NCBI GenBank assembly: GCA_902523065.1
Contig: CABYXZ010000007.1
Location: 6,802-70,801, forward strand
Source: an uncultured Marinoscillum sp.
GTDB taxonomy: Bacteria; Bacteroidota; Bacteroidia; Cytophagales; MED-G16
Direction of reading: 5' to 3'
DNA length: 64,000 nucleotides
Part shown: positions 1,881 through 52,406 of the stretch, in pieces
Numbering within the stretch: position 1 is the first letter of the stretch
Layout: each line of letters begins with the position of its first letter
Notes under the pieces: model-generated
What the model saw: the letters and a program-made list of their open reading frames with translations, nothing else
Told to the model about the DNA's origin: nothing
Databases searched by the model: none
Translations under genes and position numbers: made by a program

Positions 1881-4796
1881 TTATAAAGTTATATTAAGAC
1901 CTAAAGTAAAGGTTCTTGCTCTAAAGTAAGTCTCTCTCCTCTCAATTCCTTGAGCAAGAGGATCACCATAATCAGTCCACCTAGAGACAGGGTCTATACC
2001 CTCGTATCCAGTTATCATGATTGGTCTTTGAGCAGAAACATATACTCTTAAGTTTTTCATAAACTTTGTTACATCTTTTAAGTTATAACCAACAGTTATG
2101 TTGTTTAACTCAAAGTATGTAGCATCTTCCACGTGAGAACTGTTAGCAGCAGCTGCAGTAAGATCCGGGTTGTAATAGCTTGTATTTACAACGTTCCAGT
2201 TTCCAACAACAGTTGGGCCAGCATTCTCATAAAAACCTCTGAACGAGTTGAATAGGTCGTGACCAAATTCACCATTCCAGAACATTGAAATATCAAGGTC
2301 CCCGATATTGAATGTATTATTCCATCCAAGTGTGAAGTCAGGTAATCCATTACCGATAACTTCTCTGTCATCATCACAGTTACAGTATGTTCCGTCACCG
2401 TCAAGGTCAGCAAATTTGAAAGTTCCATCAGCATTTATCCCTTCATATCTAGGCCCCCAAATTTGTCCTAAGGTTTCACCTTCAACTACTCTGACTAATG
2501 ACACATCACTCTGTCCGGGTGATCCCATACTAGCTCTGTAAAGAACACCACCACTAAATGATAAGTCACCCTGTGTCCAGCTCAATAACTCACTAGTACT
2601 TGTACCAAATACAACTCCAGTTGTCCAGTTAAAGTTATTAGAGTTTGAGACGTTAAAGTTAACATTAGCCTCAAAACCAGCATTCCTTGTTGTACCAATA
2701 TTTAATAGAGTCTGCCCGACAAGATTTGGTGGAACTGGTACGTTCACACTTAACAACTGATCTTTTGTCTCTCTAGTAAAGTATTCAACAGAACCAAATA
2801 ATCTTGAGTTAACAAATGCAAAATCTACACCTACGTTTAAGTGAGTTGCAATCTCCCAAGCCAAGTCAGGGTTCGCATTACTTGTAGGTCCATAACTTGA
2901 GGTATATGCACCATTGTAGTAGAAGTTACCAGCAGGAGCAAATCTCTGTAATGAGATGTAAGAACTTCCTGGCTCGTTACCAGTCTGTCCGTAACTAACT
3001 CTCAATTTTAAATTATCAATCGCATCAGTGTCAAGTAAATTGTGAAGACTAACGCCACCACCGAGTCCATAGAACGTAGCCCATTTGTTGTTAGCTCCAA
3101 ACCTTGAAGAACCTTCATATCTTAAACTAGCATTCAAGAAGTAAGTGTCATCATAGTTTAGGTTTACTCTCGCTAAACCAGCAATTAATTTATTAGAATT
3201 AGCCCAACTCCAAACAGATCCTAATCCGTTATTGAAATCAGCTGAAGCACCTAAGTTATGGTATGAAAAAGCATCAGTTAAGAAATCACCACCTTCGGCG
3301 TGGTAACCTTCGTTGAAGAATTCTTGATAAGAATATCCAACTAAAGCATTAATGCCAAGGTCACCGGCTTGACCAGCATAACCTAGCGTTCCCTCTAATA
3401 GATCATTAGTATACTGTTGATTATCGGTTATTGCTAGACCATTTCTATCTGATCCTCTGAATCTTGCCGTCTTTTTGTAGTATTGACCTCTCTCAACATC
3501 AGTTATTTGTCTAGAATATGAAAGTGATGCGTTAAGACCCTCAGCTATTGCGCTAAGATCTAAAGACGCCTTAAGTGAACCCAAGAAAATATTATCATTA
3601 CCCTCGTTTATATTTTGTGTAACAATTGAAACAGGGTTAACATAATCAAAAATAGTTCTCTCGTGGTAGCCACCATATATTGAGTTTGGATCGTACACAG
3701 GCATTGTTGGGTTAGATTTAAGTGCTTCTCTAAAACCTTCATTACCAAATCCGTAGCTTGCATCCTTGTTAGTATAAGAAACACCTACATCTATAGTCAA
3801 CTTACCATCCATACCCTTTTGCGATAGATTAACGGCAGTGTTAAGATTATTATTTCCTGTACCTAATAGGATACCTTCTCTCTCTCTGTAATTAACAGCT
3901 ACTCTGTATGTAGTATTTACTGTACCACCAGAAACTGATATATTATGAGTTTGAGACACACCATCTCTTGTTACAAGGTCTAACCAATCAGTAGATGCCC
4001 CAAAGTCAACAGCACCCGGAAGTGCTCTATACTCGTCAGCAGTCATAACACTAATTGTATTAGCCATTTGATCAACAGATGTAGATACATTGTATTCAAC
4101 TTTAAAGTCATTGACCATACCTCTCTTAGTTGTTACTAAGATCACACCACTAGAACCTCTAGTACCGTATATAGCAGCAGCTGCACCGTCTTTGATTACG
4201 TCGATTGACTCTATATCATTTGGATCAACCAAGTCTAGGTTTCCACCAATAACTCCGTCAATTACAACCAAAGGAGATGCGTTAGCACCAACAGTTGAAA
4301 TACCTCTCAGCCTTAGTGTAAATCCACCGTTTGGATCACCACCTGGCTTTGTAATAGATAAACCTGCAACTTTACCCTCAAGAAGACCCATTGGATTACT
4401 TACTAATCCTTTATTGAAATCTTCCTCATTGAGGCTAGTAACAGCACTGGTTATCTCTTTTCTTTCTTGTGTACCGTAACCGGTAACAACAATCTCATCA
4501 AGAGCGGCAATATCCTCTGCAAGAGAGATATTGATCTCCGATTGAGATCCCACAGCAATTTCAATGGTTGAATATCCAACATATGTTACAACTAGGACAT
4601 CATCCGACGAAGCATTTAATGCAAAGTCACCGTTCATATCCGTTATTGTTCCATTAGAAGTGCCTTTAATAACAATATTGGCACCTGGGATACCTTCACC
4701 ATTTTCATCTGTAACTTTACCAGTTACAGCACTTTGAGCTAAAGCATAGCTCATACCTGAAATAAACATCAGGACTAATAGTAAAAGCTTTCTCAT
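1881..4796 (-). CDS. susC: SusC-family TonB-dependent outer-membrane transporter
   Basis: 971 aa. Signal peptide, an N-terminal carboxypeptidase-regulatory-like domain (VTGKVTDENGEGIPGANIVIKGT), a plug motif (VVTGYGTQERKEITSAV; IYGTRGSSGVILVTTKRG) and a C-terminal beta-barrel ending in an aromatic-rich strand. Confidence 0.92.
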   Translation of the reverse strand: MRKLLLLVLMFISGMSYALAQSAVTGKVTDENGEGIPGANIVIKGTSNGTITDMNGDFALNASSDDVLVVTYVGYSTIEIAVGSQSEINISLAEDIAALDEIVVTGYGTQERKEITSAVTSLNEEDFNKGLVSNPMGLLEGKVAGLSITKPGGDPNGGFTLRLRGISTVGANASPLVVIDGVIGGNLDLVDPNDIESIDVIKDGAAAAIYGTRGSSGVILVTTKRGMVNDFKVEYNVSTSVDQMANTISVMTADEYRALPGAVDFGASTDWLDLVTRDGVSQTHNISVSGGTVNTTYRVAVNYREREGILLGTGNNNLNTAVNLSQKGMDGKLTIDVGVSYTNKDASYGFGNEGFREALKSNPTMPVYDPNSIYGGYHERTIFDYVNPVSIVTQNINEGNDNIFLGSLKASLDLSAIAEGLNASLSYSRQITDVERGQYYKKTARFRGSDRNGLAITDNQQYTNDLLEGTLGYAGQAGDLGINALVGYSYQEFFNEGYHAEGGDFLTDAFSYHNLGASADFNNGLGSVWSWANSNKLIAGLARVNLNYDDTYFLNASLRYEGSSRFGANNKWATFYGLGGGVSLHNLLDTDAIDNLKLRVSYGQTGNEPGSSYISLQRFAPAGNFYYNGAYTSSYGPTSNANPDLAWEIATHLNVGVDFAFVNSRLFGSVEYFTRETKDQLLSVNVPVPPNLVGQTLLNIGTTRNAGFEANVNFNVSNSNNFNWTTGVVFGTSTSELLSWTQGDLSFSGGVLYRASMGSPGQSDVSLVRVVEGETLGQIWGPRYEGINADGTFKFADLDGDGTYCNCDDDREVIGNGLPDFTLGWNNTFNIGDLDISMFWNGEFGHDLFNSFRGFYENAGPTVVGNWNVVNTSYYNPDLTAAAANSSHVEDATYFELNNITVGYNLKDVTKFMKNLRVYVSAQRPIMITGYEGIDPVSRWTDYGDPLAQGIERRETYFRARTFTLGLNITL

Positions 4797-15648: not shown

Positions 15649-17070
15649 TTAATCATTTTGTGTTAATTGTTTTTTCTTTAAAAATTTATGTACGGAATGA
15701 GCACAGTCTCTACCCTCTTTTATAGCCCAGACAACAAGTGACTGACCCCTTCTGGAATCTCCACAAGAAAAGAATTTTTTTCTTGAGGTTAAATAGTTTT
15801 TTTCATTTGCTCGGATAGTTCCATCAGATGATGTCTCGATAGAGTATTGATCATCGAAAAATAGATTTGGTTTTTCATATCCAATTGCAATAAGTAATAA
15901 ATCGCATGGAATTAACTTCTCAGAATTTTTTAGTGGATAAAAACTTTTTTTATCCTTATCCCAAGATATATCAACCGTTTTAACAAATTCAATATTATCG
16001 TTACCAACAAATTCTTTAGCCATAACTCCCCACTTCCTATCACATCCTTCTTCATGAGATGATGATGTTTTAAAGGTACTTGCAAAAAGTGGCCACATCA
16101 TTGAATCGTCTCTCTCCAGCGGTGGTCTAGGTAGAAGTTCAAGCTGTAAAACCGATTTTGCTCCTTGCCTATTACTTGTTCCTATACAATCTGAACCAGT
16201 ATCACCACCTCCTAATACCACAACATTTTTATCCTTTGCACTAATGTCAATGTCCGTTTTTATTTTAGAATTGATTTTATTTTGCATTGTGAGAAAATCC
16301 ATTGCAAAGTGTATTCCTGATAAATTTCTCCCTTCTAAAACTATATCTTTTGGAACTGTTGATCCTACGCATAAAACAATTGCATCATATTCAGAGTCAA
16401 GTCTTTCAATAGATATATTTTCCCCAATACACATTTTTGTAAGAAAGTTTATACCCTCTTCCTCTAAAATTTTGACTCTTCTATCGATTATTTTCTTCTC
16501 TAACTTAAAATCAGGAATCCCAAACCTTAATAAACCACCTATTTTCTCATCTTTCTCATAAACGGTAACCTGGTACCCATTTTTATTTAACTGATCTGCA
16601 CATGCTAAACCAGCTGGTCCTGATCCAACGACTGCAATTTTTTTATTAGATAATTTCTTTTTCTTTGTTGGCTTCACATATCCCTTTAAAAAGGCTTTTT
16701 CAATAACTTGTTTTTCAATGTTTTCAATACTAACAGGATCTTGGTTTATACCCAAGACGCATGAATGCTCACAAGGTGCTGGACAGATTCTGCCAGTAAA
16801 TTCAGGAAAGTTATTTGTAGAGACTAAAATTTCATACGCTTCTCTCCAATTATTATCTGAAACTGCAGAATTAAACTCCGGTATCATATTTCCTAGTGGG
16901 CAGGATGAGTGACAGAAAGGCGTACCGCAATCCATGCATCTGTCTGACTGATTTCTTAGATCGTTATCAGATAATAAAGATTGAAATTCACTATGGTTCT
17001 TTAACCTTTTATCAACCTTAGTAAGTGATGGATTTTTTTTCTTGTATTTAATGAAGCCAGGTTTAACCAT
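15649..17070 (-). CDS. gltD: Glutamate synthase (NADPH) small subunit
   Basis: 473 aa. Fe-S cysteine clusters (CMDCGTPFCH; CPAPCEHSC), the dinucleotide-binding motif VVGSGPAGLACA, and an 8-nt overlap with gltB. Confidence 0.92.
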   Translation of the reverse strand: MVKPGFIKYKKKNPSLTKVDKRLKNHSEFQSLLSDNDLRNQSDRCMDCGTPFCHSSCPLGNMIPEFNSAVSDNNWREAYEILVSTNNFPEFTGRICPAPCEHSCVLGINQDPVSIENIEKQVIEKAFLKGYVKPTKKKKLSNKKIAVVGSGPAGLACADQLNKNGYQVTVYEKDEKIGGLLRFGIPDFKLEKKIIDRRVKILEEEGINFLTKMCIGENISIERLDSEYDAIVLCVGSTVPKDIVLEGRNLSGIHFAMDFLTMQNKINSKIKTDIDISAKDKNVVVLGGGDTGSDCIGTSNRQGAKSVLQLELLPRPPLERDDSMMWPLFASTFKTSSSHEEGCDRKWGVMAKEFVGNDNIEFVKTVDISWDKDKKSFYPLKNSEKLIPCDLLLIAIGYEKPNLFFDDQYSIETSSDGTIRANEKNYLTSRKKFFSCGDSRRGQSLVVWAIKEGRDCAHSVHKFLKKKQLTQND

Positions 17071-20000
17071 TTACGTTAATTTTATTTTTTTCGTGAATCC
17101 TCCTCAACTCTTTAGGATATACCTTAGTAAAATTATTTTTTTGGTTTTGAATATCGTCAAGTATAAATGAGGCTAAATGACTATCGGTATATTTCCTGTG
17201 TGAAAGAAGAAGTGCTTTTATTTTTTTAATATCCTCTTCATTAGTATTTACCAGATCAATAGATGATTTATTAAAATTATTTAAATTTTTATTTCCATAA
17301 ATATATGCTATACCTCCGCTCATACCAGCTCCAAAGTTTTTACCAATATTTCCAAGTATAAGAGCAACCCCTCCAGTCATGTACTCGCAAGCGTTATCAC
17401 CAACACCTTCAACTACAACATCTACACCAGAATTTCTAACACAAAACCTTTCACCGGCTTTTCCATTTATGAAGCAACTACCAGAGGTTGCACCGTAAAG
17501 TGCAACATTTCCAATAATCATATTCTCATTAGCGAGGAATCTAGATTCTTTGGGAGGTCTGATAATTAATTTAGCACCAGAAAGCCCCTTTCCAAAATAA
17601 TCATTAGAGTCACCTTCAATTTTTAATGTCAATCCTTTACTTCCAAAAGCACCAAAACTTTGACCTGCGGATCCAATAAAATTAATATTTATAGAGTCTT
17701 CACTAATTGCTTCTGAACCAAATTTTCTAGATATTTCACTAGATATTATTGTACCTACCGCTCTGTCTGTACTTTTTATGTGAGTAGAGACATTAGATCT
17801 AACAGATGGATTATCTAAAGTATCTTTTATTTTCTCAAGAAGAACGTAATCTAATTGATCTGAGAGAAAACCTTTCTGATGAGATGAATTATAATAATTT
17901 TTAGGTTTATCTAAATGAGAGAAAAGTATTGGGTTAAGGTCTAAATTTTTTGTCTTCCAGTGCTGATTGTTTCTTTGCTTTAGAAGTTTTGTGTTTCCAA
18001 TAAGATTGTCAACCTTTCTCACTCCTAAACTTGCCATAATTTCTCTTAATTCTTCAGTTAAGAAATGAATCAAGTTAACCATGTGATCAACTTCCCCATT
18101 AAACCTTTTTCTTAGAGTTTTATCTTGTGTTGCAATACCAACAGGACATGTATTCAGGTGACATTTTCTCATCATTATACAACCTTGAGATATTAGAGCA
18201 GCAGTTGATATCCCCCACTCATCTGCTCCAAGAATTGAGGCTATTGCAAGATCTCTTCCGGTTTTTATCTGTCCGTCAACCTGCAGTTTTACTCTAGACC
18301 TTAATCCATTTTTCATAAGTGTTTGTTGGGTCTCTGACAGGCCTAACTCCCAAGGGAGCCCAGCATGCTGTATGGAAGATATGGGAGAGGCGCCTGTTCC
18401 ACCATCATACCCAGATATCAAAATTTTATCAGATTTGGCCTTTGCTACCCCTGCAGCTATAGTACCAACGCCAGCTTTAGAAACAAGTTTTACACTTATA
18501 TCTGCATCCCTATTCGCATTTTTTAGATCAAAAATTAATTGCGAAAGATCCTCAATAGAATATATATCGTGATGAGGTGGAGGTGAAATCAATCCTACAC
18601 CAGGTGTAGAATTTCGTACCCTAGCTATCCAGTCATCAACCTTATGACCTGGTAACTGACCGCCCTCACCTGGCTTTGCTCCTTGTGCCATTTTGATTTG
18701 AATTTCTTTTGCATTATTTAGATAATTTATAGTGACACCAAATCTACCAGATGCAATTTGTTTTATGGCTGAACTTAAATTATCTCCATTTTCTTTGATT
18801 TTGAATCTTACCTCATCCTCACCGCCTTCACCAGAGTTACTTCTCCCTCCAAGTCTGTTCATGGCAATTGCTAAGTTAGTATGGGCCTCATGAGAAATTG
18901 ATCCAAAAGACATAGCCCCAGTTGCAAACCTCTTGTATATATTTTTTGACGACTCTACTTCAGACAGTGGAATAGAATCATTGATAAAGTTAAAATCAAA
19001 ATTGCTTCTGATTGATGTTTTATTGAGGTGATTGACCTTTGATGAATATTTTTTGAATAGACTAAAATCATTTTTTATAGTACTGTGTTGAAGAAGAGAA
19101 ATTGTCTCGGGGTTAAAGGCATGCTTCTCACCTTCTTTCTTCCAGCTTAGTAGACCTCCAACATCTAGATCAGATTGTTCGTGGTTGTATGCATGAAAAT
19201 GCTTTTTATTATTTTCTCTCTCAATGTCATTAATACCAAGACCTTGAATTCTTGAAGTGGTAGATGTAAAATATTGATCGACAGTATTTCTATTTATACC
19301 AATAATCTCAAATAATTGAGATCCTTGGTATGATTTAAGAGTGGATATACCAATTTTAGAAAAAACTTTGAGTAGTCCTTTTTCTATAGAGTTAATGTAA
19401 TTATTCTTTAAAGTTTTTAATTTTTTTATATCAGATGAAGAATTAGATTCGCGTAATTTTCTAATTGTGGCAAAAGCCATATATGGATTTATTGCATTAG
19501 CTCCAAAAGACAGAAGTGTAGCATAATGATGAACCTCCCATGCATCTCCAGACTCAACAATTAATCCAACTTTTCCTCTTTTACCAGATCTTATTAAATG
19601 ATTATGAATGCAAGAACATGATAATAGACTAGGAATTGGTGCATGGGATGAATCTAAAAAACGATCACTGATAATAATAAATTCATAACCATCATCAATA
19701 GCATCATCAACATACCTGCATAATCTATTCAAAGCCTTCTTAAGGTTTCCTCCTTTTTTGTCAACCTTATAATAAGCATTAATTGTCTTTGACTGTAAAT
19801 TAAAAATATCAATAGATCTAATTTTCTCTAGAGTTTCGTCATTTAAGATTGGTGACTCCAGCATGATGTTTCTGCAGTCCGTATCCTTCTGAGATAGTAA
19901 ATTAGAAACATTTCCTAAATGGGTAATCAATGACATAACATCTTTTTCTCTTATAGGATCTATGGGAGGATTAGTGACTTGAGCAAATAGCTGCTTAAAA

Positions 20001-21553
20001 TAATTTGAAATGTGTTTTGGCTTCTTACTTAGTACTGCAATTGGAGTGTCATTTCCCATTGATCCAATTGGCTCACTTGCACTCTCAGTCATAGGATATA
20101 TGACTTTCTCAATATCCTCTTTTGAATAACCGAAGACCTTATGAAACCTTTCTAAATCAAGATCATTAATCTTTTTAAATTTCGATTTTTTCTTAGGTAA
20201 CATGTCGGCAGTTATTCTGTTTTTCTTTAGCCAGTTATTATAAGGCTCTCTATTACATATTGTGTTCTTTATCTCTTGATCAAACTTTACCTTATTTCTT
20301 GTAAAATCTATACTTAATATTTTTCCTGATCTAAGGTTCCCTTTTTCTTTTATGTTACTTGGTTCAATATCTAAAACACCAGTCTCTGAAGCCAAAATGA
20401 TTCTATTGTCTTCAGTAATAGTATATCTCATCGGCCTGAGTCCATTTCTATCTAGAATTGATCCTATACTTTTTCCGTTGGTGTATATAATTGCTGCTGG
20501 ACCATCCCATGGTTCAATAATTGATGATTTGAACTCATAAAAAGATTTCTTAGAATCAGACATTGTATCGTCATTGTCCCAGGCTTCAGGGATTAACATC
20601 ATCATGATCTCGTCAATGTCTATATTAGAAAATGACAACAACTCTATTAAATTATCTAGGGATGCAGAATCTGATTGATCATTAGATGTAACTGGTCTGA
20701 TAATATTTAACTCTTCATTAGTAAATAGCTTTGATTCAAATCTAGACTCAGCAGATTTCAAAGAATTCAAATTGCCTTGTAATGTATTAATCTCTCCGTT
20801 ATGAGAAATAAATCTAAATGGCTGAGCCAACTTCCAGGATGGAAATGTATTTGTAGAAAATCTAGAATGCACAATTGAAAAACAACTTTCAAAAAGGTGA
20901 TTTGATAGGTCGGGATAAAATGTTCTAACCTGGTGTGTTGTTAACTGTCCCTTATATACAACTGTATTAGTTGAAAGCGAAGCAATATAAACTGAATTTG
21001 ACAAGTTTTTATTATTATGATTACCAATAACATTTTCAATGTGTCGTCTTGATATGTACAAGACTTTATTAAATTCATCTTCATCTTTGAAATAGTTATT
21101 CGGTTTAATTATCCACTGTTCTATCTTGGGTATGAAATTAAAGCTTGACTTACATAAATCATTCTTATTAGTTGGAACTTCTCTTTTATAGATGATTGAA
21201 TAACCAAATTTCTTAAAAGTATCATCAAAAATTTTTATAGATGTATTATAGTCTTTTGTATTATTAGGTAGAAAAAACATTCCAAGACCATATTTTCCTG
21301 GAGATGGTAATAAAATATTTTTTTGTGAAAGCTCATCTAAAAGTAACTTATGTGGAATTTGAGTTTTAAGACCTGCACCATCTCCTATTTTTTTGTTATT
21401 ACCTGTAGCTCCCCTATGACTCATGTTCTCTAGAACTGTTAAGGAGTTAGCTATAATATCATTGGATCTTGTACCATCAATATTTGCAACACATCCAATA
21501 CCGCACGCATCCGATTCGAATCTTTTCCTGTAAAGACTATTTTTAGAACTCAT
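17063..21553 (-). CDS. gltB: Glutamate synthase (NADPH) large subunit
   Basis: 1496 aa. It has an N-terminal amidotransferase region (DACGIG), an FMN domain (GEGGEDE; KMAQGAKPGEGGQLPG) and a C-terminal GXGXG domain. Confidence 0.95.
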   Translation of the reverse strand: MSSKNSLYRKRFESDACGIGCVANIDGTRSNDIIANSLTVLENMSHRGATGNNKKIGDGAGLKTQIPHKLLLDELSQKNILLPSPGKYGLGMFFLPNNTKDYNTSIKIFDDTFKKFGYSIIYKREVPTNKNDLCKSSFNFIPKIEQWIIKPNNYFKDEDEFNKVLYISRRHIENVIGNHNNKNLSNSVYIASLSTNTVVYKGQLTTHQVRTFYPDLSNHLFESCFSIVHSRFSTNTFPSWKLAQPFRFISHNGEINTLQGNLNSLKSAESRFESKLFTNEELNIIRPVTSNDQSDSASLDNLIELLSFSNIDIDEIMMMLIPEAWDNDDTMSDSKKSFYEFKSSIIEPWDGPAAIIYTNGKSIGSILDRNGLRPMRYTITEDNRIILASETGVLDIEPSNIKEKGNLRSGKILSIDFTRNKVKFDQEIKNTICNREPYNNWLKKNRITADMLPKKKSKFKKINDLDLERFHKVFGYSKEDIEKVIYPMTESASEPIGSMGNDTPIAVLSKKPKHISNYFKQLFAQVTNPPIDPIREKDVMSLITHLGNVSNLLSQKDTDCRNIMLESPILNDETLEKIRSIDIFNLQSKTINAYYKVDKKGGNLKKALNRLCRYVDDAIDDGYEFIIISDRFLDSSHAPIPSLLSCSCIHNHLIRSGKRGKVGLIVESGDAWEVHHYATLLSFGANAINPYMAFATIRKLRESNSSSDIKKLKTLKNNYINSIEKGLLKVFSKIGISTLKSYQGSQLFEIIGINRNTVDQYFTSTTSRIQGLGINDIERENNKKHFHAYNHEQSDLDVGGLLSWKKEGEKHAFNPETISLLQHSTIKNDFSLFKKYSSKVNHLNKTSIRSNFDFNFINDSIPLSEVESSKNIYKRFATGAMSFGSISHEAHTNLAIAMNRLGGRSNSGEGGEDEVRFKIKENGDNLSSAIKQIASGRFGVTINYLNNAKEIQIKMAQGAKPGEGGQLPGHKVDDWIARVRNSTPGVGLISPPPHHDIYSIEDLSQLIFDLKNANRDADISVKLVSKAGVGTIAAGVAKAKSDKILISGYDGGTGASPISSIQHAGLPWELGLSETQQTLMKNGLRSRVKLQVDGQIKTGRDLAIASILGADEWGISTAALISQGCIMMRKCHLNTCPVGIATQDKTLRKRFNGEVDHMVNLIHFLTEELREIMASLGVRKVDNLIGNTKLLKQRNNQHWKTKNLDLNPILFSHLDKPKNYYNSSHQKGFLSDQLDYVLLEKIKDTLDNPSVRSNVSTHIKSTDRAVGTIISSEISRKFGSEAISEDSININFIGSAGQSFGAFGSKGLTLKIEGDSNDYFGKGLSGAKLIIRPPKESRFLANENMIIGNVALYGATSGSCFINGKAGERFCVRNSGVDVVVEGVGDNACEYMTGGVALILGNIGKNFGAGMSGGIAYIYGNKNLNNFNKSSIDLVNTNEEDIKKIKALLLSHRKYTDSHLASFILDDIQNQKNNFTKVYPKELRRIHEKNKINVNG

Positions 21554-21707
21554 TTGTTAAATTATATGAATTAAAAAAAAAGAGACCTTTTCTTATTAAA
21601 ATAAGAAAAAATCAGCTTAAAGTTAAAATTTTTGTAAAAAAAGATGTGATAACATTAAAATATTAAAGATTATAAATTATTTGTTATCAAATTTTTATAT
21701 TACGTGG

Positions 21708-21935
21708 ATGAAAATTACACACATTATTGTTACGTTATTTTTAATAAGTTGTTCTTCTGATACGGACTGCTGTTCAGAGCCAGATACATGTATAAATGAA
21801 AATTTGATAGATCCTAATAAAGCTTGTACAAAGGAATACAGACCTGTTTGTGGATGTGATGGTATAACATATGCTAATCCGTGTGTAGCAGAGGGGAATG
21901 GAGTTACAAAGTGGACTGAAGGAACTTGTGATTAA
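21708..21935 (+). CDS. Small lipoprotein with a Kazal-like serine-protease-inhibitor domain
   Basis: ATG at 21708 gives MKITHIIVTLFLISCSS (lipobox). The C-terminus CTKEYRPVCGCDGITYANPCVAEGNGVTKWTEGTC matches the Kazal core Y-x-PVCG-x-DG-x-TY-x-N-x-C. Confidence 0.6.
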   Translation: MKITHIIVTLFLISCSSDTDCCSEPDTCINENLIDPNKACTKEYRPVCGCDGITYANPCVAEGNGVTKWTEGTCD

Positions 21936-21942
21936 ATAGAAA

Positions 21943-39061: not shown

Positions 39062-42000
39062 TTATAAGTTAAAGTTTAGTCCAATTGTAAATTTACGAGC
39101 ACTTGGCTGGCCGTTCCAGTCTACTCCATTTCTTAATCCATCGTACAGAAAGCTTGTAACTTCTGGATTGTATCCACTATATCCTGTGAATGTGAATAGA
39201 TTTTGAGCAGAGAGATAAATATTTATTCTATCAAATTGATAGCTTAGATTAATATTACTTATCCTGAGAAAACTTCCGTCCTCAATTATCCAATCAGGCA
39301 TCGCTATCTGACCATTTGTTGTGTAACCAATTCTTGGATAGCTATTTGATGTCCTCTCTGGTCTCCAAGCATTATTATAAGCAGCAGTTGTTATGTTACT
39401 CCATGAGATACCTTCAGGTGTTGCGAGCTGCAATAAATTTCCATTTGCTATGTCATTTCCATATACCCCATTAGCTAGGACTCTTAAACTTAAATTCTTA
39501 TAAGATAGTTCTAGATTAATACCGTATACAAAATCTGGATTTGGGTTACCTATGATTGTCCTGTCCTGTAAATCTATCACTCCGTCACCATTCTGATCAA
39601 CTATCCTGTAGTCACCTGCCCAAAAAATAGGTGGATTATCATCAGAAGGATCGTAAATTCTTGCTATACCACCTCCAGGAAGAGCATCGTTAACTTGGTA
39701 TATTCCATCTGTTTCAAAGCCATAAAAAAGACTAGTCTCTTCTCCTTCAATAAATACATTAGGTGCATATTTGAATATGTTACCTCTACTGACATTATTA
39801 CCTTCGTAAAATGCCTTTTGCTGGTAAGAGCCGTTAAGTAAAATACCTGAGGCAGGAAGTCCAAGATTTTTAAGTTTAGTCTTATTAAATGCGATGTTAC
39901 CACCAACCGATAAGGTGAAATCATTGTTATCAACTAGTATTGCATTTAGGCTTGCCTCAATACCTCTATTCTCAATTTCACCTCTATTTACTTGAACATT
40001 TAAAAATCCAGATGATAAAGGTATAGGAACATTTTGAAGTAAATCTTTGGTAAGCTTACTGTAAACATCAACAGTAGCAGTTAGTCTACTCTCAAAGAAA
40101 GCAAAATCTAAACCTAAATTAACCTGCTCTGTAGTCTCCCACTTAAGGTCAGGGTTAGCAATATTCTGTAGAAATATTGGAATGTCTACACCATTATTTG
40201 CATTACCATATAAAACATTTGTGTTACTTGCGTAATTAGACAGCGTAGCGTAAGGTCTTATTCCATGGTTACCAATTTGACCCCATCCAGCCCTTAATTT
40301 TAAATCATCAAAAACATTCAAGTTATCAATGAAAGATTCTTGCACTAATCTCCAAGCAAGTGAGAAAGATGGGAAATATCCGTATCTATTTTCTTGTGAA
40401 AATTTAGAGACCCCATCAACTCTTAGTGTGGACGTTAATACATACTTATTCATGAAAGTATAGTTTGCCCTAGCTAAATAAGATATAAGTCTCGTATCTG
40501 ATGCGTCCGTAGCAAGCGGAGTTGAATTAAGCTGGCCTAAAAGAGGTTGCTGAGTTGTTAAGGCAGTAGTAACAAAATCCTCGACAGCAAATATTTTAGT
40601 ATCGACATCTCTCGAGTCCCAAGTCACACCAGCAACTGCATTTAATCTATGCTTTCTATTAAAAGATCTATTAAATCTAAGAAGATTATTTACCTGGTAG
40701 GACTTCGTGTTGAGATTAGAAATCTGAAGGGCACCGTTAGCAGCTTTTCCTTGGAAGGTATTTAATCCCCAGAACCTTCTTCTCTCCTTACTTCTCATAT
40801 TTCCACCAGCTCTCAATTCATACTTAAGACCTTTAACTGGTAAGTCATATGTCAATGTAACTGAACCAATAAATCTACTCTCCTCAGATTTATCTTCAAA
40901 ATCTTCTACCCAACCTAATGGGGTTGTGGTGTTTAGCGCGTTCCCGTATTCCTCCATCTCGTCATTGGTGATAGGAACATTTGCTAATGTACTTCTTACA
41001 GCACTTTGATTTGCACCAATCAAGTCACCTGACTCAGCAAAGTCTAAATTGCTATAAAATCCACTAAACCTTGCGTCTACTTTTAATTTATCTGTAATCT
41101 TTTTATCGAAATTATATCTTATATCTCCACTTTGAAATCTTGAGTTCTCAACAAGTCCTTTCTGATCTGTATAACCAAATGATAAGTAATAACTTCCTTC
41201 GCTATCTCCTCCAGATACCGATCCACCAAAATTATAGTGCTCACTAATATTGTAGATTTCATCCTGCCAGTCATGTAAAACAGCAGGAGTCGAAGCCAAA
41301 GTTCCCCCTTCAAGTATTGGATAAACCTTATCTCCGTCAATGTGATACCTCACATTATTGTAGTTCATTGCCTGAACTTCATTCTGATATCTTGCAAAAT
41401 CTAATCCACTCAAAACATCGTATCTCTGATCCTCCATCATTCTGACACCCGAGTTTACAAATAAATCAATTTTTCTTTTTCCGGTAAGTCCTTTTTTCGT
41501 TGTTATCAAAACAACTCCATTAGCTCCTCTAGATCCATAGATAGCTGTTGCAGATGCATCCTTAAGAACTTCAATACTTTCAATATCACGAGGGTTTAAC
41601 CCATTAAGTCCGTTCTGTACTTCTTGACCTGAGTTACCAATTCCACCAGCTGGATTTACATCCTCTCCTGCAGATGAGATGATGACTCCATCAACAACAT
41701 ATAGTGGTTCGTTGTTTCCTCTAAGGCTATTGGTACCTCTAATTCTTACACTGATACCTGAACCTGGGGACCCTGAGTTCTGTGTTACTTGGACACCAGC
41801 AGCTCTTCCTTGTAATATCTGATCTACAGTAGCAAACTCTCTAGCTTCGTTCTCGGATAATTCCACTGATGATACAGCACCAGTCAGATCGCTTTTCCTA
41901 ACTGTTCCATAACCAACAACGACAACCTCTTCTAATTCCTGTAGGTCTTGGGCAAGGGTTATGTCTATAACTGATCTTGCACCTACCGATATCTCTTGAG

Positions 42001-42229
42001 TTTCAAAACCTAAGAATGAGATTCTTAAGACTGCATCTGATCCCGATACCGATATCGAAAAATTTCCATCAATATCAGTAACAACTCCATTACTTGTATT
42101 TAACTCTAGAATTGTTGCTCCTGGGATTGTTTCTCCAGTGTCATCAGTAACAGTTCCTGTTATTGTCTGCTGAGCGAAACTTAATGTAGTTGCAAATAGT
42201 GTGATAAATAAAAGGAATACTCTCATCAT
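39062..42229 (-). CDS. susC: SusC-family TonB-dependent outer-membrane transporter
   Basis: 1055 aa. N-terminal ITGTVTDDTGETIPGATILE, a plug region (VVVGYGTVRKSDLTGAV; IYGSRGANGVVLITTKKG) and a long beta-barrel. Confidence 0.92.
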   Translation of the reverse strand: MMRVFLLFITLFATTLSFAQQTITGTVTDDTGETIPGATILELNTSNGVVTDIDGNFSISVSGSDAVLRISFLGFETQEISVGARSVIDITLAQDLQELEEVVVVGYGTVRKSDLTGAVSSVELSENEAREFATVDQILQGRAAGVQVTQNSGSPGSGISVRIRGTNSLRGNNEPLYVVDGVIISSAGEDVNPAGGIGNSGQEVQNGLNGLNPRDIESIEVLKDASATAIYGSRGANGVVLITTKKGLTGKRKIDLFVNSGVRMMEDQRYDVLSGLDFARYQNEVQAMNYNNVRYHIDGDKVYPILEGGTLASTPAVLHDWQDEIYNISEHYNFGGSVSGGDSEGSYYLSFGYTDQKGLVENSRFQSGDIRYNFDKKITDKLKVDARFSGFYSNLDFAESGDLIGANQSAVRSTLANVPITNDEMEEYGNALNTTTPLGWVEDFEDKSEESRFIGSVTLTYDLPVKGLKYELRAGGNMRSKERRRFWGLNTFQGKAANGALQISNLNTKSYQVNNLLRFNRSFNRKHRLNAVAGVTWDSRDVDTKIFAVEDFVTTALTTQQPLLGQLNSTPLATDASDTRLISYLARANYTFMNKYVLTSTLRVDGVSKFSQENRYGYFPSFSLAWRLVQESFIDNLNVFDDLKLRAGWGQIGNHGIRPYATLSNYASNTNVLYGNANNGVDIPIFLQNIANPDLKWETTEQVNLGLDFAFFESRLTATVDVYSKLTKDLLQNVPIPLSSGFLNVQVNRGEIENRGIEASLNAILVDNNDFTLSVGGNIAFNKTKLKNLGLPASGILLNGSYQQKAFYEGNNVSRGNIFKYAPNVFIEGEETSLFYGFETDGIYQVNDALPGGGIARIYDPSDDNPPIFWAGDYRIVDQNGDGVIDLQDRTIIGNPNPDFVYGINLELSYKNLSLRVLANGVYGNDIANGNLLQLATPEGISWSNITTAAYNNAWRPERTSNSYPRIGYTTNGQIAMPDWIIEDGSFLRISNINLSYQFDRINIYLSAQNLFTFTGYSGYNPEVTSFLYDGLRNGVDWNGQPSARKFTIGLNFNL

Positions 42230-42352
42230 TTAGTCATTTAGTTAGTTTCAATTTGTTGACTTAGTTTGCGAAAGTCAACTAATTTTTAGCTTTAAACTAA
42301 AAATTTGATATTGAATTTATAACATATATGTTACAAAAGCAATAATTATCTC

Positions 42353-46016: not shown

Positions 46017-46022
46017 AATTAG

Positions 46023-46097
46023 TGGGCCCTGCTGGATTCGAACCAGCGACCCCCTGCTTGTAAGGCAGGTGCTCTGAACCAACTGAGCTAAGAGCCC
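46023..46097 (-). tRNA. tRNA-Val (anticodon TAC)
   Basis: The minus-strand sequence GGGCTCTTAGCTCAGTTGGTTCAGAGCACCTGCCTTACAAGCAGGGGGTCGCTGGTTCGAATCCAGCAGGGCCCA folds by hand into a 75-nt cloverleaf. It has a 7-bp acceptor stem, the anticodon loop CTTACAA and the T-loop TTCGAAT. CCA is not encoded. Confidence 0.95.
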
Positions 46098-46981: not shown

Positions 46982-47003
46982 AGTACTAATATATGAAAAA
47001 AGT

Positions 47004-47029
47004 ACAAAGGGTACCTCTGCACCCTTTGT
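47004..47029 (-). terminator. Rho-independent terminator downstream of the 306-aa NTF2-like gene
   Basis: Stem ACAAAGGGT / ACCCTTTGT with an 8-nt loop, followed on the minus strand by ACTTTTTTC. Confidence 0.55.
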
Positions 47030-50345: not shown

Positions 50346-51494
50346 TTATTTCTTCTGAAAAACACGAACGTAATCCAACTCCATTATATCATAGGTATAA
50401 TCAGGATTTATGTTTCCTCCTAAATTCCCACCCATAGCAATATTTAAGAGAATATAATGAGGGTTATCAAATGGTACGTCATTATTGTTATTCATAACAA
50501 CATATACTTTATTGTCAACCATTATTTTTATTTGGTCTTTTGTCCACTCCATTGAGTAGATACGATATACCGAAGATGAGTTCAGGTCAGTAGTTAAACC
50601 ATAAGATGCATAATCACCACTGGGTGTTGCCCAATGAAAAGTTCCATACAATTTTTTCTTATCCCAACCATTCTGCTCCATGATATCTATCTCACCACAC
50701 CGTGGCCAACCCACACTTCCGTACTGACTTTTATGAAAATTTCCCAACTCGTTTATGTTGGCGCCTAGAGTCCAGATTGCAGGCCAGGTACCCTCTGACT
50801 GGGGAAGTTTAGCTCTCACATCAACCCTTCCGTATTCAAATACGAATTTTGAATTAAGTCTCGCTGACGTATAATCCCTCCCAACTCCGTCGAAAACATA
50901 GTTTTCTTTTATAGATGCAATCTTTAATGAACCGTTATCAACATAAGAGTTTTTTATATCGTCTGTATAATGTTGCAACTCACCATTCCACCAACCACCA
51001 TTTGGATTTGGTGGTAAAATTTGATGGTGCCAAAGTTCAGGATCAGGTTTTCCCTGGTAATTAAACTCATCACCCCACACCTGGACATAGGACTGATCAA
51101 ATTCATTGATGACAAGGCAACCACTCTCATTAACATAAGTACCCTCTTCTGTGTCAGGGCATAAGTCATTAACATCAGGAACACCGTCTTTATCAGAATC
51201 AAGCAAGACAACGTTGGTCTCCTGAAATTCTGCTACAATATTTAAATCGGAACTTGCCACAATATCAATTGGATTATTGGTACCATCTAAGTCCCCTGAC
51301 CACCGAACAAATTCGTATGGAGAATTACTTACTGCCTCTATCTTTATATTAGTTCCTAACTCAACGTTATTATTACCATCATAAACAATACTGCCAGCAT
51401 TTTCAGGTATAACAAAAAAAGATAAGCTTACGAGCTCCTCATCAGAACACGATAAGAAAAATAAAATGAGGACAAGAGTAATCTTATTTTTCAA
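50346..51494 (-). CDS. GH16 beta-glucanase (laminarinase-like) lipoprotein with an N-terminal module and a thrombospondin-type-3-like Ca-binding repeat
   Basis: 382 aa with a TTG start and lipobox FLSC. It carries DSDKDGVPDVNDLCPDT and the GH16 catalytic motif GEIDIMEQ (ExDxxE), plus WPAIWTLG. Confidence 0.85.
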   Translation of the reverse strand: MKNKITLVLILFFLSCSDEELVSLSFFVIPENAGSIVYDGNNNVELGTNIKIEAVSNSPYEFVRWSGDLDGTNNPIDIVASSDLNIVAEFQETNVVLLDSDKDGVPDVNDLCPDTEEGTYVNESGCLVINEFDQSYVQVWGDEFNYQGKPDPELWHHQILPPNPNGGWWNGELQHYTDDIKNSYVDNGSLKIASIKENYVFDGVGRDYTSARLNSKFVFEYGRVDVRAKLPQSEGTWPAIWTLGANINELGNFHKSQYGSVGWPRCGEIDIMEQNGWDKKKLYGTFHWATPSGDYASYGLTTDLNSSSVYRIYSMEWTKDQIKIMVDNKVYVVMNNNNDVPFDNPHYILLNIAMGGNLGGNINPDYTYDIMELDYVRVFQKK

Positions 51495-51713
51495 ATTCCT
51501 GTTTAGTTAGTTTGATCCGTAAATCTATAAAAAAGTAAAGATTAGATCTATTAAGAATACATTTTTAACAAAAAAACAAGAAAATACTATAATTAAATTT
51601 CATTATTTGTAAAATAATAATATAAAATTATAAATAATGTAAATATGATACTATAAATTAAAATTATTAAATAATTATACTCTATTTATTAAAAAATATA
51701 TAATTTTGATTAT

Positions 51714-51790
51714 TCATTTTATAGTTTGGTTTAACACTTCAAACTGGTTAGTTAGTTAGTTAATGCCCCTTGGTCGGGGCATTTTTCTTT
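51714..51790 (+). ncRNA. Candidate small RNA or 5' leader: -7 box, stem-loop, (GUUA)4 linker and an intrinsic terminator
   Basis: TAATTTTG at 51701-51708 matches TAnnTTTG. Stem-loop 1 is AGTTTG / CAAACT (51723-51728 / 51740-51745). The linker is (GTTA)x4 at 51747-51762. A GC-rich hairpin AATGCCCC / GGGGCATT (51762-51769 / 51776-51783) is followed by a T-run to 51790. No ORF ends here. The 5' end is a guess. Confidence 0.3.
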
Positions 51791-51830
51791 TAATTTTATT
51801 CTTATATATTTGCCGCAAATTTTTAAAGAA

Positions 51831-52406
51831 ATGTATTTTGATATAAAAGAATTTATCTCCGCGACCATGATTTTATTTGCAATAATTGATGTGGTTGGTA
51901 ATATCCCATTGATAGTGTTACTAAGAGAAAAATTTAAGGTAATAGAATCGGGTAAGGCTACATTAGTATCTCTTATAATAATGGTAACTTTCCTTTACGT
52001 AGGAGAAATAATTTTACAGCTTCTAGGTGTAGATATAAATTCTTTTGCAGTTGCAGGGTCTATCATAATTCTTTTTTTAGCTACAGAAATGATTCTAGGT
52101 ATAAAACTATATAAGGATAATAACCCAAAAACAGCATCCATTGTTCCTATTGCATTTCCTCTCATTGCCGGCCCTGGTACTTTAACAACTTTAATTTCTA
52201 TAAAGTCTGAGTTTAACGACTTAAATATAATCTTGGCAATAATTGTAAATATGGTTCTCGTCTATATTGTCTTGAAATCTTCTGAAAAAATAGAAAAAAT
52301 TATCGGAGCTCAAGGGATAAATATTCTAAGGAAAGTATTTGGTATTATCCTTCTGGCTATAGGTATAAAACTATTTACAACAAATATTAAGTTAATATTC
52401 TCTTAA
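51831..52406 (+). CDS. MarC-family (UPF0056) integral membrane protein
   Basis: The track ORF starts at TTG 51810. ATG at 51831 gives MYFDIKEFISATMILFAIIDVVGNIPL. It has six TM segments and the IAFPLIAGPGTLTT motif typical of MarC/NAAT. Confidence 0.8.
   Translation: MYFDIKEFISATMILFAIIDVVGNIPLIVLLREKFKVIESGKATLVSLIIMVTFLYVGEIILQLLGVDINSFAVAGSIIILFLATEMILGIKLYKDNNPKTASIVPIAFPLIAGPGTLTTLISIKSEFNDLNIILAIIVNMVLVYIVLKSSEKIEKIIGAQGINILRKVFGIILLAIGIKLFTTNIKLIFS

Follow-up and report, generated by a model that had tools for sequence, protein, structure and literature searches.

A candidate trans-acting small RNA gene upstream of marC in uncultured marine Cytophagales

We analysed a 64-kb window, i.e., a stretch of 64,000 nucleotides from the genome of an uncultured Marinoscillum sp., and focus on an intergenic unit directly upstream of a marC-family gene that combines a promoter-like box, a small stem-loop, a (GUUA)n tract and an intrinsic terminator. 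All coordinates are positions in this window and refer to the + strand unless stated otherwise. The unit is found in 41 copies in 41 related loci from metagenome-assembled genomes (MAGs), single-amplified genomes (SAGs) and metagenomes, always directly upstream of marC and with the same orientation and architecture. Its organization suggests an independently transcribed non-coding RNA gene of ~78 nt that acts in trans, a statement for which, taken as a whole, we regard the chances as evenly balanced. Its parts differ in strength: a discrete RNA is probably made from the unit, and an action of this RNA on the leader of a SusC-like gene 9.5 kb away is a tentative proposal. The evidence for both comes from sequence comparison and folding.

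A preliminary description of this DNA had listed four elements in the gap, all of which are in place according to a direct reading of the sequence from 51300 to 52000. The putative promoter of the small RNA (sRNA), P1 (51686-51712), consists of a conserved A/T block (TTAAAA, 51689-51694) and the -7 box TAATTTTG (51701-51708). The flavobacterial TAnnTTTG box occupies positions -12 to -5 relative to the transcription start site (PMC9723704), which therefore puts the predicted P1 start near 51713, with TAATTTTG at -12 to -5 and a plausible range of 51712-51716. The predicted RNA of ~76-79 nt (51713-51791, 3' end in the U-tract) would begin with an unpaired 5' segment, (A)UUCAUUUUAUA (51713-51722), which is defined by its conservation among orthologues. 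It is followed by stem-loop 1 (51723-51745), for which folding pairs the 6-nt arms AGUUUG and CAAACU (AGTTTG at 51723-51728, CAAACT at 51740-51745 in the DNA; 6 bp) around an 11-nt loop. The subsequent G(GUUA)4A tract (51746-51763, with (GTTA)x4 at 51747-51762) is mostly unpaired in the predicted fold and, given its complementarity to the leaders discussed below, is our proposed seed. The unit closes with the intrinsic terminator recovered by terminator scans (51762-51791), i.e., an 8-bp stem with five G-C pairs and a 6-nt loop (AATGCCCC-TTGGTC-GGGGCATT, 51762-51783) followed by TTTCTTTT at 51784-51791, which forms the U-tract UUUCUUUU of the RNA.

Occurrence was assessed with and without reference to marC. 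A marC-anchored scan with one genome per species returned eight close relatives, i.e., uncultured 'Marinoscillum' or Flammeovirgaceae MAGs and SAGs (Cytophagales), and one Crocinitomicaceae outgroup. The element was found upstream of marC in seven of these loci (L001-L007) and is absent from L008 (83% MarC identity) and L009 (52%). Scanning metagenomes with a DNA pattern derived from the element alone, i.e., without use of marC, yielded 30 further loci, each of which shows the element, then TATATTTGC..., and then a marC start. A covariance model (R1) built from 25 copies recovered 39 copies from 320 kb of sequence and a further two from loci added later, with the window copy scoring 97.5 bits (E 1.5e-16). 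In ~400 kb of related-locus sequence there is one copy per locus except for L023 (two), and R1 finds no paralogues, the inspected weak matches (16-26 bits) being coding sequence or the hairpin on the other strand. A repeated or mobile element is thus ruled out, as the hairpin is also unique within the window. On sequence grounds, conservation of the whole unit in 41 copies from independent assemblies is more than chance. The upstream neighbour differs between lineages, i.e., we find a divergent GH16 gene, a co-directional beta-lactamase-like gene, a divergent GSDH gene, a divergent MFS gene or, in the case of L023, another element-marC unit in divergent orientation; the unit thus moves together with marC. 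The two L023 copies (4257-4340, minus strand; 4419-4502, plus strand) are diverged and stand back to back, each before its own marC, and stem either from a genuine inverted duplication or from chimeric joining in the metagenome. The element of L033 is the same as one of the L023 copies but has the beta-lactamase-like gene upstream.

The conservation pattern within the unit was quantified as the number of variants among the 38 distinct sequences. TTCA at the 5' end of the RNA shows a single variant (38/38), and the rest of the 5' TTCA...TTTATA segment is nearly invariant, though outside the search pattern. Within the terminator, the 3' arm has one variant, the 5' arm two (A or G, giving A-U or G-U) and the loop 17, while the T-tract is identical in 34/38 sequences. 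The adjoining 12-13-nt spacer (19 variants) leads to a second TAnnTTTG box, TATATTTG, which is invariant (one variant, 38/38) and the best-conserved feature of the whole region. Compared with the spacer beside this second box, conservation is far stronger in the ~50 nt preceding the hairpin, which comprise the 5' segment, stem 1 and the repeats. For P1, 35 of the 38 sequences show TAATTT at the same distance from the conserved RNA 5' end, and upstream conservation ends ~30 nt ahead of the predicted start, which is what a promoter should look like. The GUUA copy number ranges from ~2.5 to 5.5 across lineages.

An 84-nt stretch covering the element folds at -20.4 kcal/mol (z = -3.5 vs shuffles). 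Stem-loop 1 is present in the fold of every one of the 15 orthologues whose folds were compared; 93.5% of the alignment cells of the stem are paired, and the changes are one-sided (U-A to U-G). For the GUUA tract, folding gives unpaired probabilities of 0.3-0.9. An H-type pseudoknot between loop 1 and this tract was ruled out by eye, as the loop sequence UUAAC is not conserved and most lineages have UUUAAAA. In accordance with the strand specificity claimed earlier, a consensus scan calls the terminator hairpin on the + strand only. A stricter scan of the 64 kb returns three terminator loci, of which 51762-51783 is the sole one not behind a coding sequence (CDS). The flanking genes, a GH16 lipoprotein gene (50346-51494, minus strand) and marC (51831-52406), are divergent, so that, as the preliminary description had noted, no CDS ends at the terminator. 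The other two strong terminators (249-275 and 47000-47028) are both bidirectional and lie ~32-35 nt behind a minus-strand gene.

A small protein gene could be ruled out, since the unit holds no conserved open reading frame (ORF): most lineages show no start codon in the 5' half of the RNA, and the sole recurrent ORF begins in a terminator arm and shifts its frame with the loop length. With regard to known RNA families, an Rfam 15 cmscan of the region with E up to 10 produced eight weak matches, the best at 24 bits vs a gathering score of 81, and a scan of the whole window at Rfam gathering thresholds reported only a tRNA-Val gene (46022-46097).

To find putative targets, we compared the (GUUA)n tract with the 47 start regions of the window, for which the background mean is -7.4 kcal/mol. 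The best energy is obtained for the leader of the SusC-like gene (39062-42229, minus strand) with -16.5 kcal/mol (empirical p 0.002). The predicted site AACUAACUAAAUGACUA (42231-42247, minus strand) covers about -22 to -4 relative to the conserved AUGAGA start, and the duplex in the window, with 10 + 6 bp, reaches as far as -4 relative to the start codon. The leader of the divergent GH16 gene ranks second (-14.9 to -15.2 kcal/mol, empirical p 0.004-0.01), with site AAACUAACUAAAC (51501-51513, minus strand) located 7-19 nt upstream of its TTG start. Both leaders show AAACUAACUAAA close to the start codon. The second SusC/D pair of the window (1881-4796) reaches -6.2 kcal/mol and is not a predicted target, and for the 5' segment of the RNA no target was found among the start regions tested. 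As 47 regions were tested, neither the SusC nor the GH16 p-value alone withstands Bonferroni correction, and the prediction was therefore tested in orthologues.

Among the SusC orthologues compared (91% and 84-85% identity), the leaders keep an (A)CUAA-repeat block within ~30 nt of the AUGAGA start, the remainder being barely alignable. In four lineages (window, L051, L052 and L001/L043), the RNA gene and a motif-bearing SusC gene are found on the same contig. With cognate seeds, the SusC energies range from -13.8 to -16.5 kcal/mol (empirical p <0.0005 to 0.026); over the pairing tests as a whole, the four lineages give -14.3 to -17.4 kcal/mol. Two outgroup SusC leaders, both without the motif, show -5.4 (p 0.89) and -9.5 kcal/mol (p 0.27). 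When 17 orthologue groups were compared, SusC alone stayed below p 0.03 in each of the three lineages tested (0.028, 0.0023 and 0.002). We also compared the true seed with 2000 shuffled seeds: its mean over the four SusC leaders is -16.25 kcal/mol, a value that none of the shuffled seeds reaches (mean -7.67, sd 1.63). Other repeats of the same composition yield -4.6 to -7.3 kcal/mol over the SusC leaders.

In the mechanism we propose, transcription would be started near 51713 by the sigma-A-type promoter P1 and ended by the intrinsic terminator at 51762-51791. As partly judged from folding, the accumulating RNA would start with a conserved unpaired stretch, continue with a small stem-loop and the unpaired (GUUA)n tract, and close with the terminator hairpin. 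Within the cell, the tract would pair with the (A)CUAA block before the SusC start codon and, in the window strain, also with the divergent GH16 leader. Such pairing would block ribosome access and lower the translation of the transporter of a polysaccharide utilization locus (PUL), as FopS does in Bacteroides thetaiotaomicron. FopS sRNAs, which are ~65-70 nt long and have a sigma-ABfr promoter, combine a terminator with an unpaired seed and act near the start codon to repress SusC translation (PMC11697453). FopS-like translational repression, sign included, is inferred as the likely mechanism.

A more specific and rather doubtful version of this idea is a 'repeat-on-repeat' riboregulator, in which the slippage-prone (GUUA)n tract (n ~2.5-5.5) would pair in several registers with the (A)CUAA repeat, such that gain or loss of units on either partner tunes PUL repression. 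If true, this would imply post-transcriptional PUL control in a streamlined pelagic Bacteroidota lineage whose xylan-type PUL, unlike that of the outgroups L047 and L048, shows no hybrid two-component regulator beside SusC. In these two outgroup genera, a hybrid regulator (Y_Y_Y, HisKA, Response_reg, HTH_AraC; L047 1-1338, L048 1-1391) precedes the orthologous SusC gene (61-62% identity). The RNA-carrying clade has a GH43 gene at that position by SusC and no adjacent regulator.

Several observations weigh against a trans-acting sRNA, in addition to the failed correction for multiple testing. Neither stem shows compensatory changes or covariation, because the stems hardly vary, and RNAalifold retains the terminator only and drops stem 1; selection on stem 1 at the RNA level is therefore unproven. 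A variable repeat number is unusual for a seed. The last two positions of the P1 box vary and depart from TAnnTTTG in most lineages, and in L007 the upstream gap has collapsed to ~10 nt such that the stop codon of the upstream gene overlaps the P1 box. Linkage to marC in 41/41 copies is also what one expects of a cis element. With regard to the target, the lineages of the SusC orthologue tests are related and not phylogenetically independent, and no co-variation between seed and SusC target is seen among them. One SusC lineage (L044/L049) shows a weak match only (-8.5 kcal/mol), and a further orthologue group (hyp544), whose start lies inside the SusD coding region, also has low p-values (0.015-0.041). 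Finally, the GH16 site is restricted to near-identical strains, with a partial match or none in the lineages L003 and L002, which rules out GH16 as a general conserved target.

The preliminary description had left open whether the unit is an sRNA or a leader of the MarC-family gene. The first reading fits the promoter-like box, the conservation, the terminator, the lack of an ORF or Rfam match and the SusC site. The second, in which a P1 transcript stops at the terminator and reads through to marC upon a signal acting through a protein or another RNA that binds the GUUA/UAG repeats, is in our view unlikely. In its favour, each of the 41 copies immediately precedes marC with unchanged orientation, across at least five different upstream neighbours, and the terminator ends 40 nt before the marC ATG (51831). 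As in terminator-based leaders (riboswitches, TRAP/HutP attenuation), the predicted short RNA would end in a terminator just upstream of one strictly linked gene. Furthermore, UAG triplet repeats abut the 5' arm of the terminator, which loosely recalls TRAP and HutP sites. On the other hand, NAG triplets are spaced by 2-3 nt in TRAP sites (9-11 repeats) and by 4 nt in HutP sites, while the UAG triplets considered here are spaced by 1 nt and number 3-5. Unlike known leaders, the unit is separated from the gene by another conserved promoter-like box and shows neither an antiterminator nor an aptamer-sized conserved fold. When the 3' arm of the terminator is blocked, only -6 to -10 kcal/mol remain vs -19 to -20.5 kcal/mol for the terminator fold, and the alternative pairings are lineage-specific, such that no conserved or competitive antiterminator is seen. 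The marC start region is not complementary to the unpaired tract (empirical p ~0.95), and no Rfam riboswitch or leader matches. With no exclusive antiterminator fold and no single shared promoter, the unit lacks what defines a riboswitch or attenuator. The 5' segment was also considered as an anti-start-codon seed for marC or its neighbours and rejected: there is no consistent match, and the marC start varies while the RNA 5' end does not.

A further point against a marC leader is the perfect TAnnTTTG box TATATTTG (P2, 51805-51812) between terminator and marC ATG, which was absent from the preliminary description. It is located 19 nt before the ATG, is kept in L008, which is without the element, and suggests that marC (51831-52406; Pfam PF01914, E 3.9e-36) is transcribed from its own promoter. 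The predicted start near 51817 would leave a marC 5' untranslated region of ~14 nt, which is short but within the reported range, given median leader lengths of 24 and 32 nt (PMC9723704, PMC7366714). In L008 (3400-3501), where the element is lost, TATATTTGCGCGC and the distance to the ATG are retained, and the stretch ACGTTAAGTTATCC...ATTTTTTT may be a decayed remnant of repeat tract and T-tract. Relative to the predicted P2 start, the terminator T-tract covers -33 to -26; this overlap with the -33 region would explain the unbroken linkage of terminator and marC in a genome with very little non-coding DNA. Within 51805-51823 we also observe a G+C-rich block immediately after the P2 box, GCCGC here and GCGCGC or GCGGGC elsewhere, in a genome of ~31% GC. 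The palindrome ATTTGC-C-GCAAAT at P2 is perfect only in the window lineage. Block and palindrome could be a discriminator-like or operator-like part of the marC promoter.

The same T-tract position is also part of an explanation without any functional RNA, which we consider improbable. It takes the hairpin as the terminator or insulator of an ancestral co-directional beta-lactamase-like gene and the flanks as a DNA-level marC promoter with the T-tract as its -33/UP region. In 24 of the 39 copies examined, a beta-lactamase-family gene is indeed found upstream on the same strand, and its distance is constant in 23 of them. In the one such locus inspected (L012), the gap has no GC-rich hairpin of its own. 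Nevertheless, loci with a divergent upstream gene (GH16, GSDH, MFS) retain the intact unit, a terminator would not need the far stronger conservation of the ~50 nt before the hairpin compared to the P2 spacer, and the tract has specific, conserved complementarity to the SusC leader. As to the gap itself, stop codon and element are 158-161 nt apart in 23/24 loci and 168 nt in L016, and its sequence is extremely A+T-rich and divergent. The loci listed with this upstream gene are L004-L006, L011-L013, L015-L021, L025, L027, L029, L032, L033, L035, L037 and L038.

If an RNA is made, its GUUA/UAG repeats might serve as a decoy for an RNA-binding protein (e.g., an RRM-type Rbp) instead of a pairing seed. 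In favour of this, decoy RNAs such as CsrB/RsmZ typically contain short repeated motifs whose copy number varies. Furthermore, FopS and GibS are bound by RbpB (PMC11697453). Such a sequestering role does not predict the exact complement of the repeat within a conserved mRNA leader, and we hold it to be quite improbable. Very improbable, finally, is a DNA operator, i.e., that (GTTA)n is bound by one transcription factor upstream of marC P2 and in the GH16 and SusC leaders and co-regulates them: the + strand has GTTAGTTAG-like repeats at 42231-42247, 51501-51513 and 51747-51762, all oriented alike in the DNA, and SusC and the unit are on opposite strands in every lineage sampled, which makes RNA complementarity and DNA identity indistinguishable, but the operator leaves the P1 box, the terminator and the conserved 5' segment unexplained, the SusC and GH16 sites fall at -4 to -22 from the start codon and thus within the part of the leader that is transcribed, successive repeats with a period of 4 bp face different sides of the helix, and the copy number varies from 2.5 to 5.5.

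Returning to the candidate trans-acting sRNA, its general layout resembles that of canonical intergenic base-pairing sRNAs (RybB, MicC and the Bacteroides BTnc candidates), i.e., a putative own promoter, a length of 50-150 nt, a conserved unpaired region, a terminator hairpin with U-tract and a divergent intergenic location. Bacteroidota generally lack Hfq and ProQ. Different from canonical sRNAs, the gene appears fused to the promoter of its neighbour, with the terminator T-tract serving as the putative -33 region of P2. The closest functional analogues are FopS and GibS of Bacteroides thetaiotaomicron (PMC11697453, PMC7366714), which share the phylum, the size (~65-80 nt) and a canonical TAnnTTTG-type promoter. 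In contrast to the 14 paralogues of FopS, there is one copy per locus (two in L023) in the ~400 kb searched here. Also unlike FopS and GibS, the predicted RNA has an extra 5' stem-loop, and a tetranucleotide repeat that is internal and varies in length forms its candidate seed, instead of a unique 5'-terminal sequence. It comes from a marine Cytophagales host with a streamlined genome. Among the eight weak Rfam 15 matches, none points to FopS or GibS homology (the presence of a FopS model in the Rfam copy used is unconfirmed), and the sole Bacteroides family is rteR with 17.8 bits vs a gathering score of 72. As far as these comparisons go, the RNA is not a member of the FopS/GibS family.

If the RNA is real, it represents an sRNA family absent from Rfam 15 and from limited literature searches, in which queries for marC and riboswitches returned noise, queries for the repeat sequence irrelevant hits, and nothing was found on sRNA control of marine PULs. 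The hosts are abundant, uncultured and genome-streamlined marine Bacteroidota, and the marC neighbour is present on hundreds of ocean metagenome contigs. PUL control by sRNAs has so far been shown only in gut Bacteroides (FopS, GibS and DonS-type antisense RNAs); if the SusC pairing holds, it would extend from there to open-ocean glycan degraders. The unit offers a concrete candidate sRNA-target pair with a simple code, i.e., GUUA repeats vs CUAA repeats. Architecture and proposed mechanism are standard and imply no new principle.

With regard to the genomic context, the extreme AT-richness of the gap that was noted earlier is borne out, with GC content down to 12.5% at 51500-51699. Its description as the longest ORF-free stretch of the window (51495-51830) has to be corrected, as the 389-nt gap at 21554-21942 exceeds it if ORFs of 120 aa or more are counted. 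This longer gap adjoins the upstream side of a glutamate synthase large-subunit gene (17063-21553, minus strand) and has no match at Rfam gathering thresholds. From 26149 to 51494, all genes are on the minus strand, and those checked against Pfam form a large glycan-utilization cluster (GH16, MFS, GSDH, GH10, MFS_2, GH43, SusC, SusD and a sulfatase-GH10 fusion), to which orthology to L051 adds a further sulfatase and an esterase. The tRNA-Val gene is embedded in this cluster. The candidate sRNA gene is located at its head and points away from it.

The SusC leader shows some further features. Upstream of the predicted target site, it can form a perfect 8-bp hairpin, GTTGACTT-(9 nt)-AAGTCAAC (42255-42279, minus strand). 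The leader (42230-42279) also contains a tiny upstream ORF, AUGACUAAAUGA (MTK-stop), whose stop codon overlaps the SusC start. A similar arrangement is present in the SusC leader of L040, i.e., AUGAUUGCACCAUGA (MIAP-stop, ATGA overlap). For L043 and L046, where the upstream AUG and SusC share the reading frame, gene callers made SusC longer by 6-18 codons.

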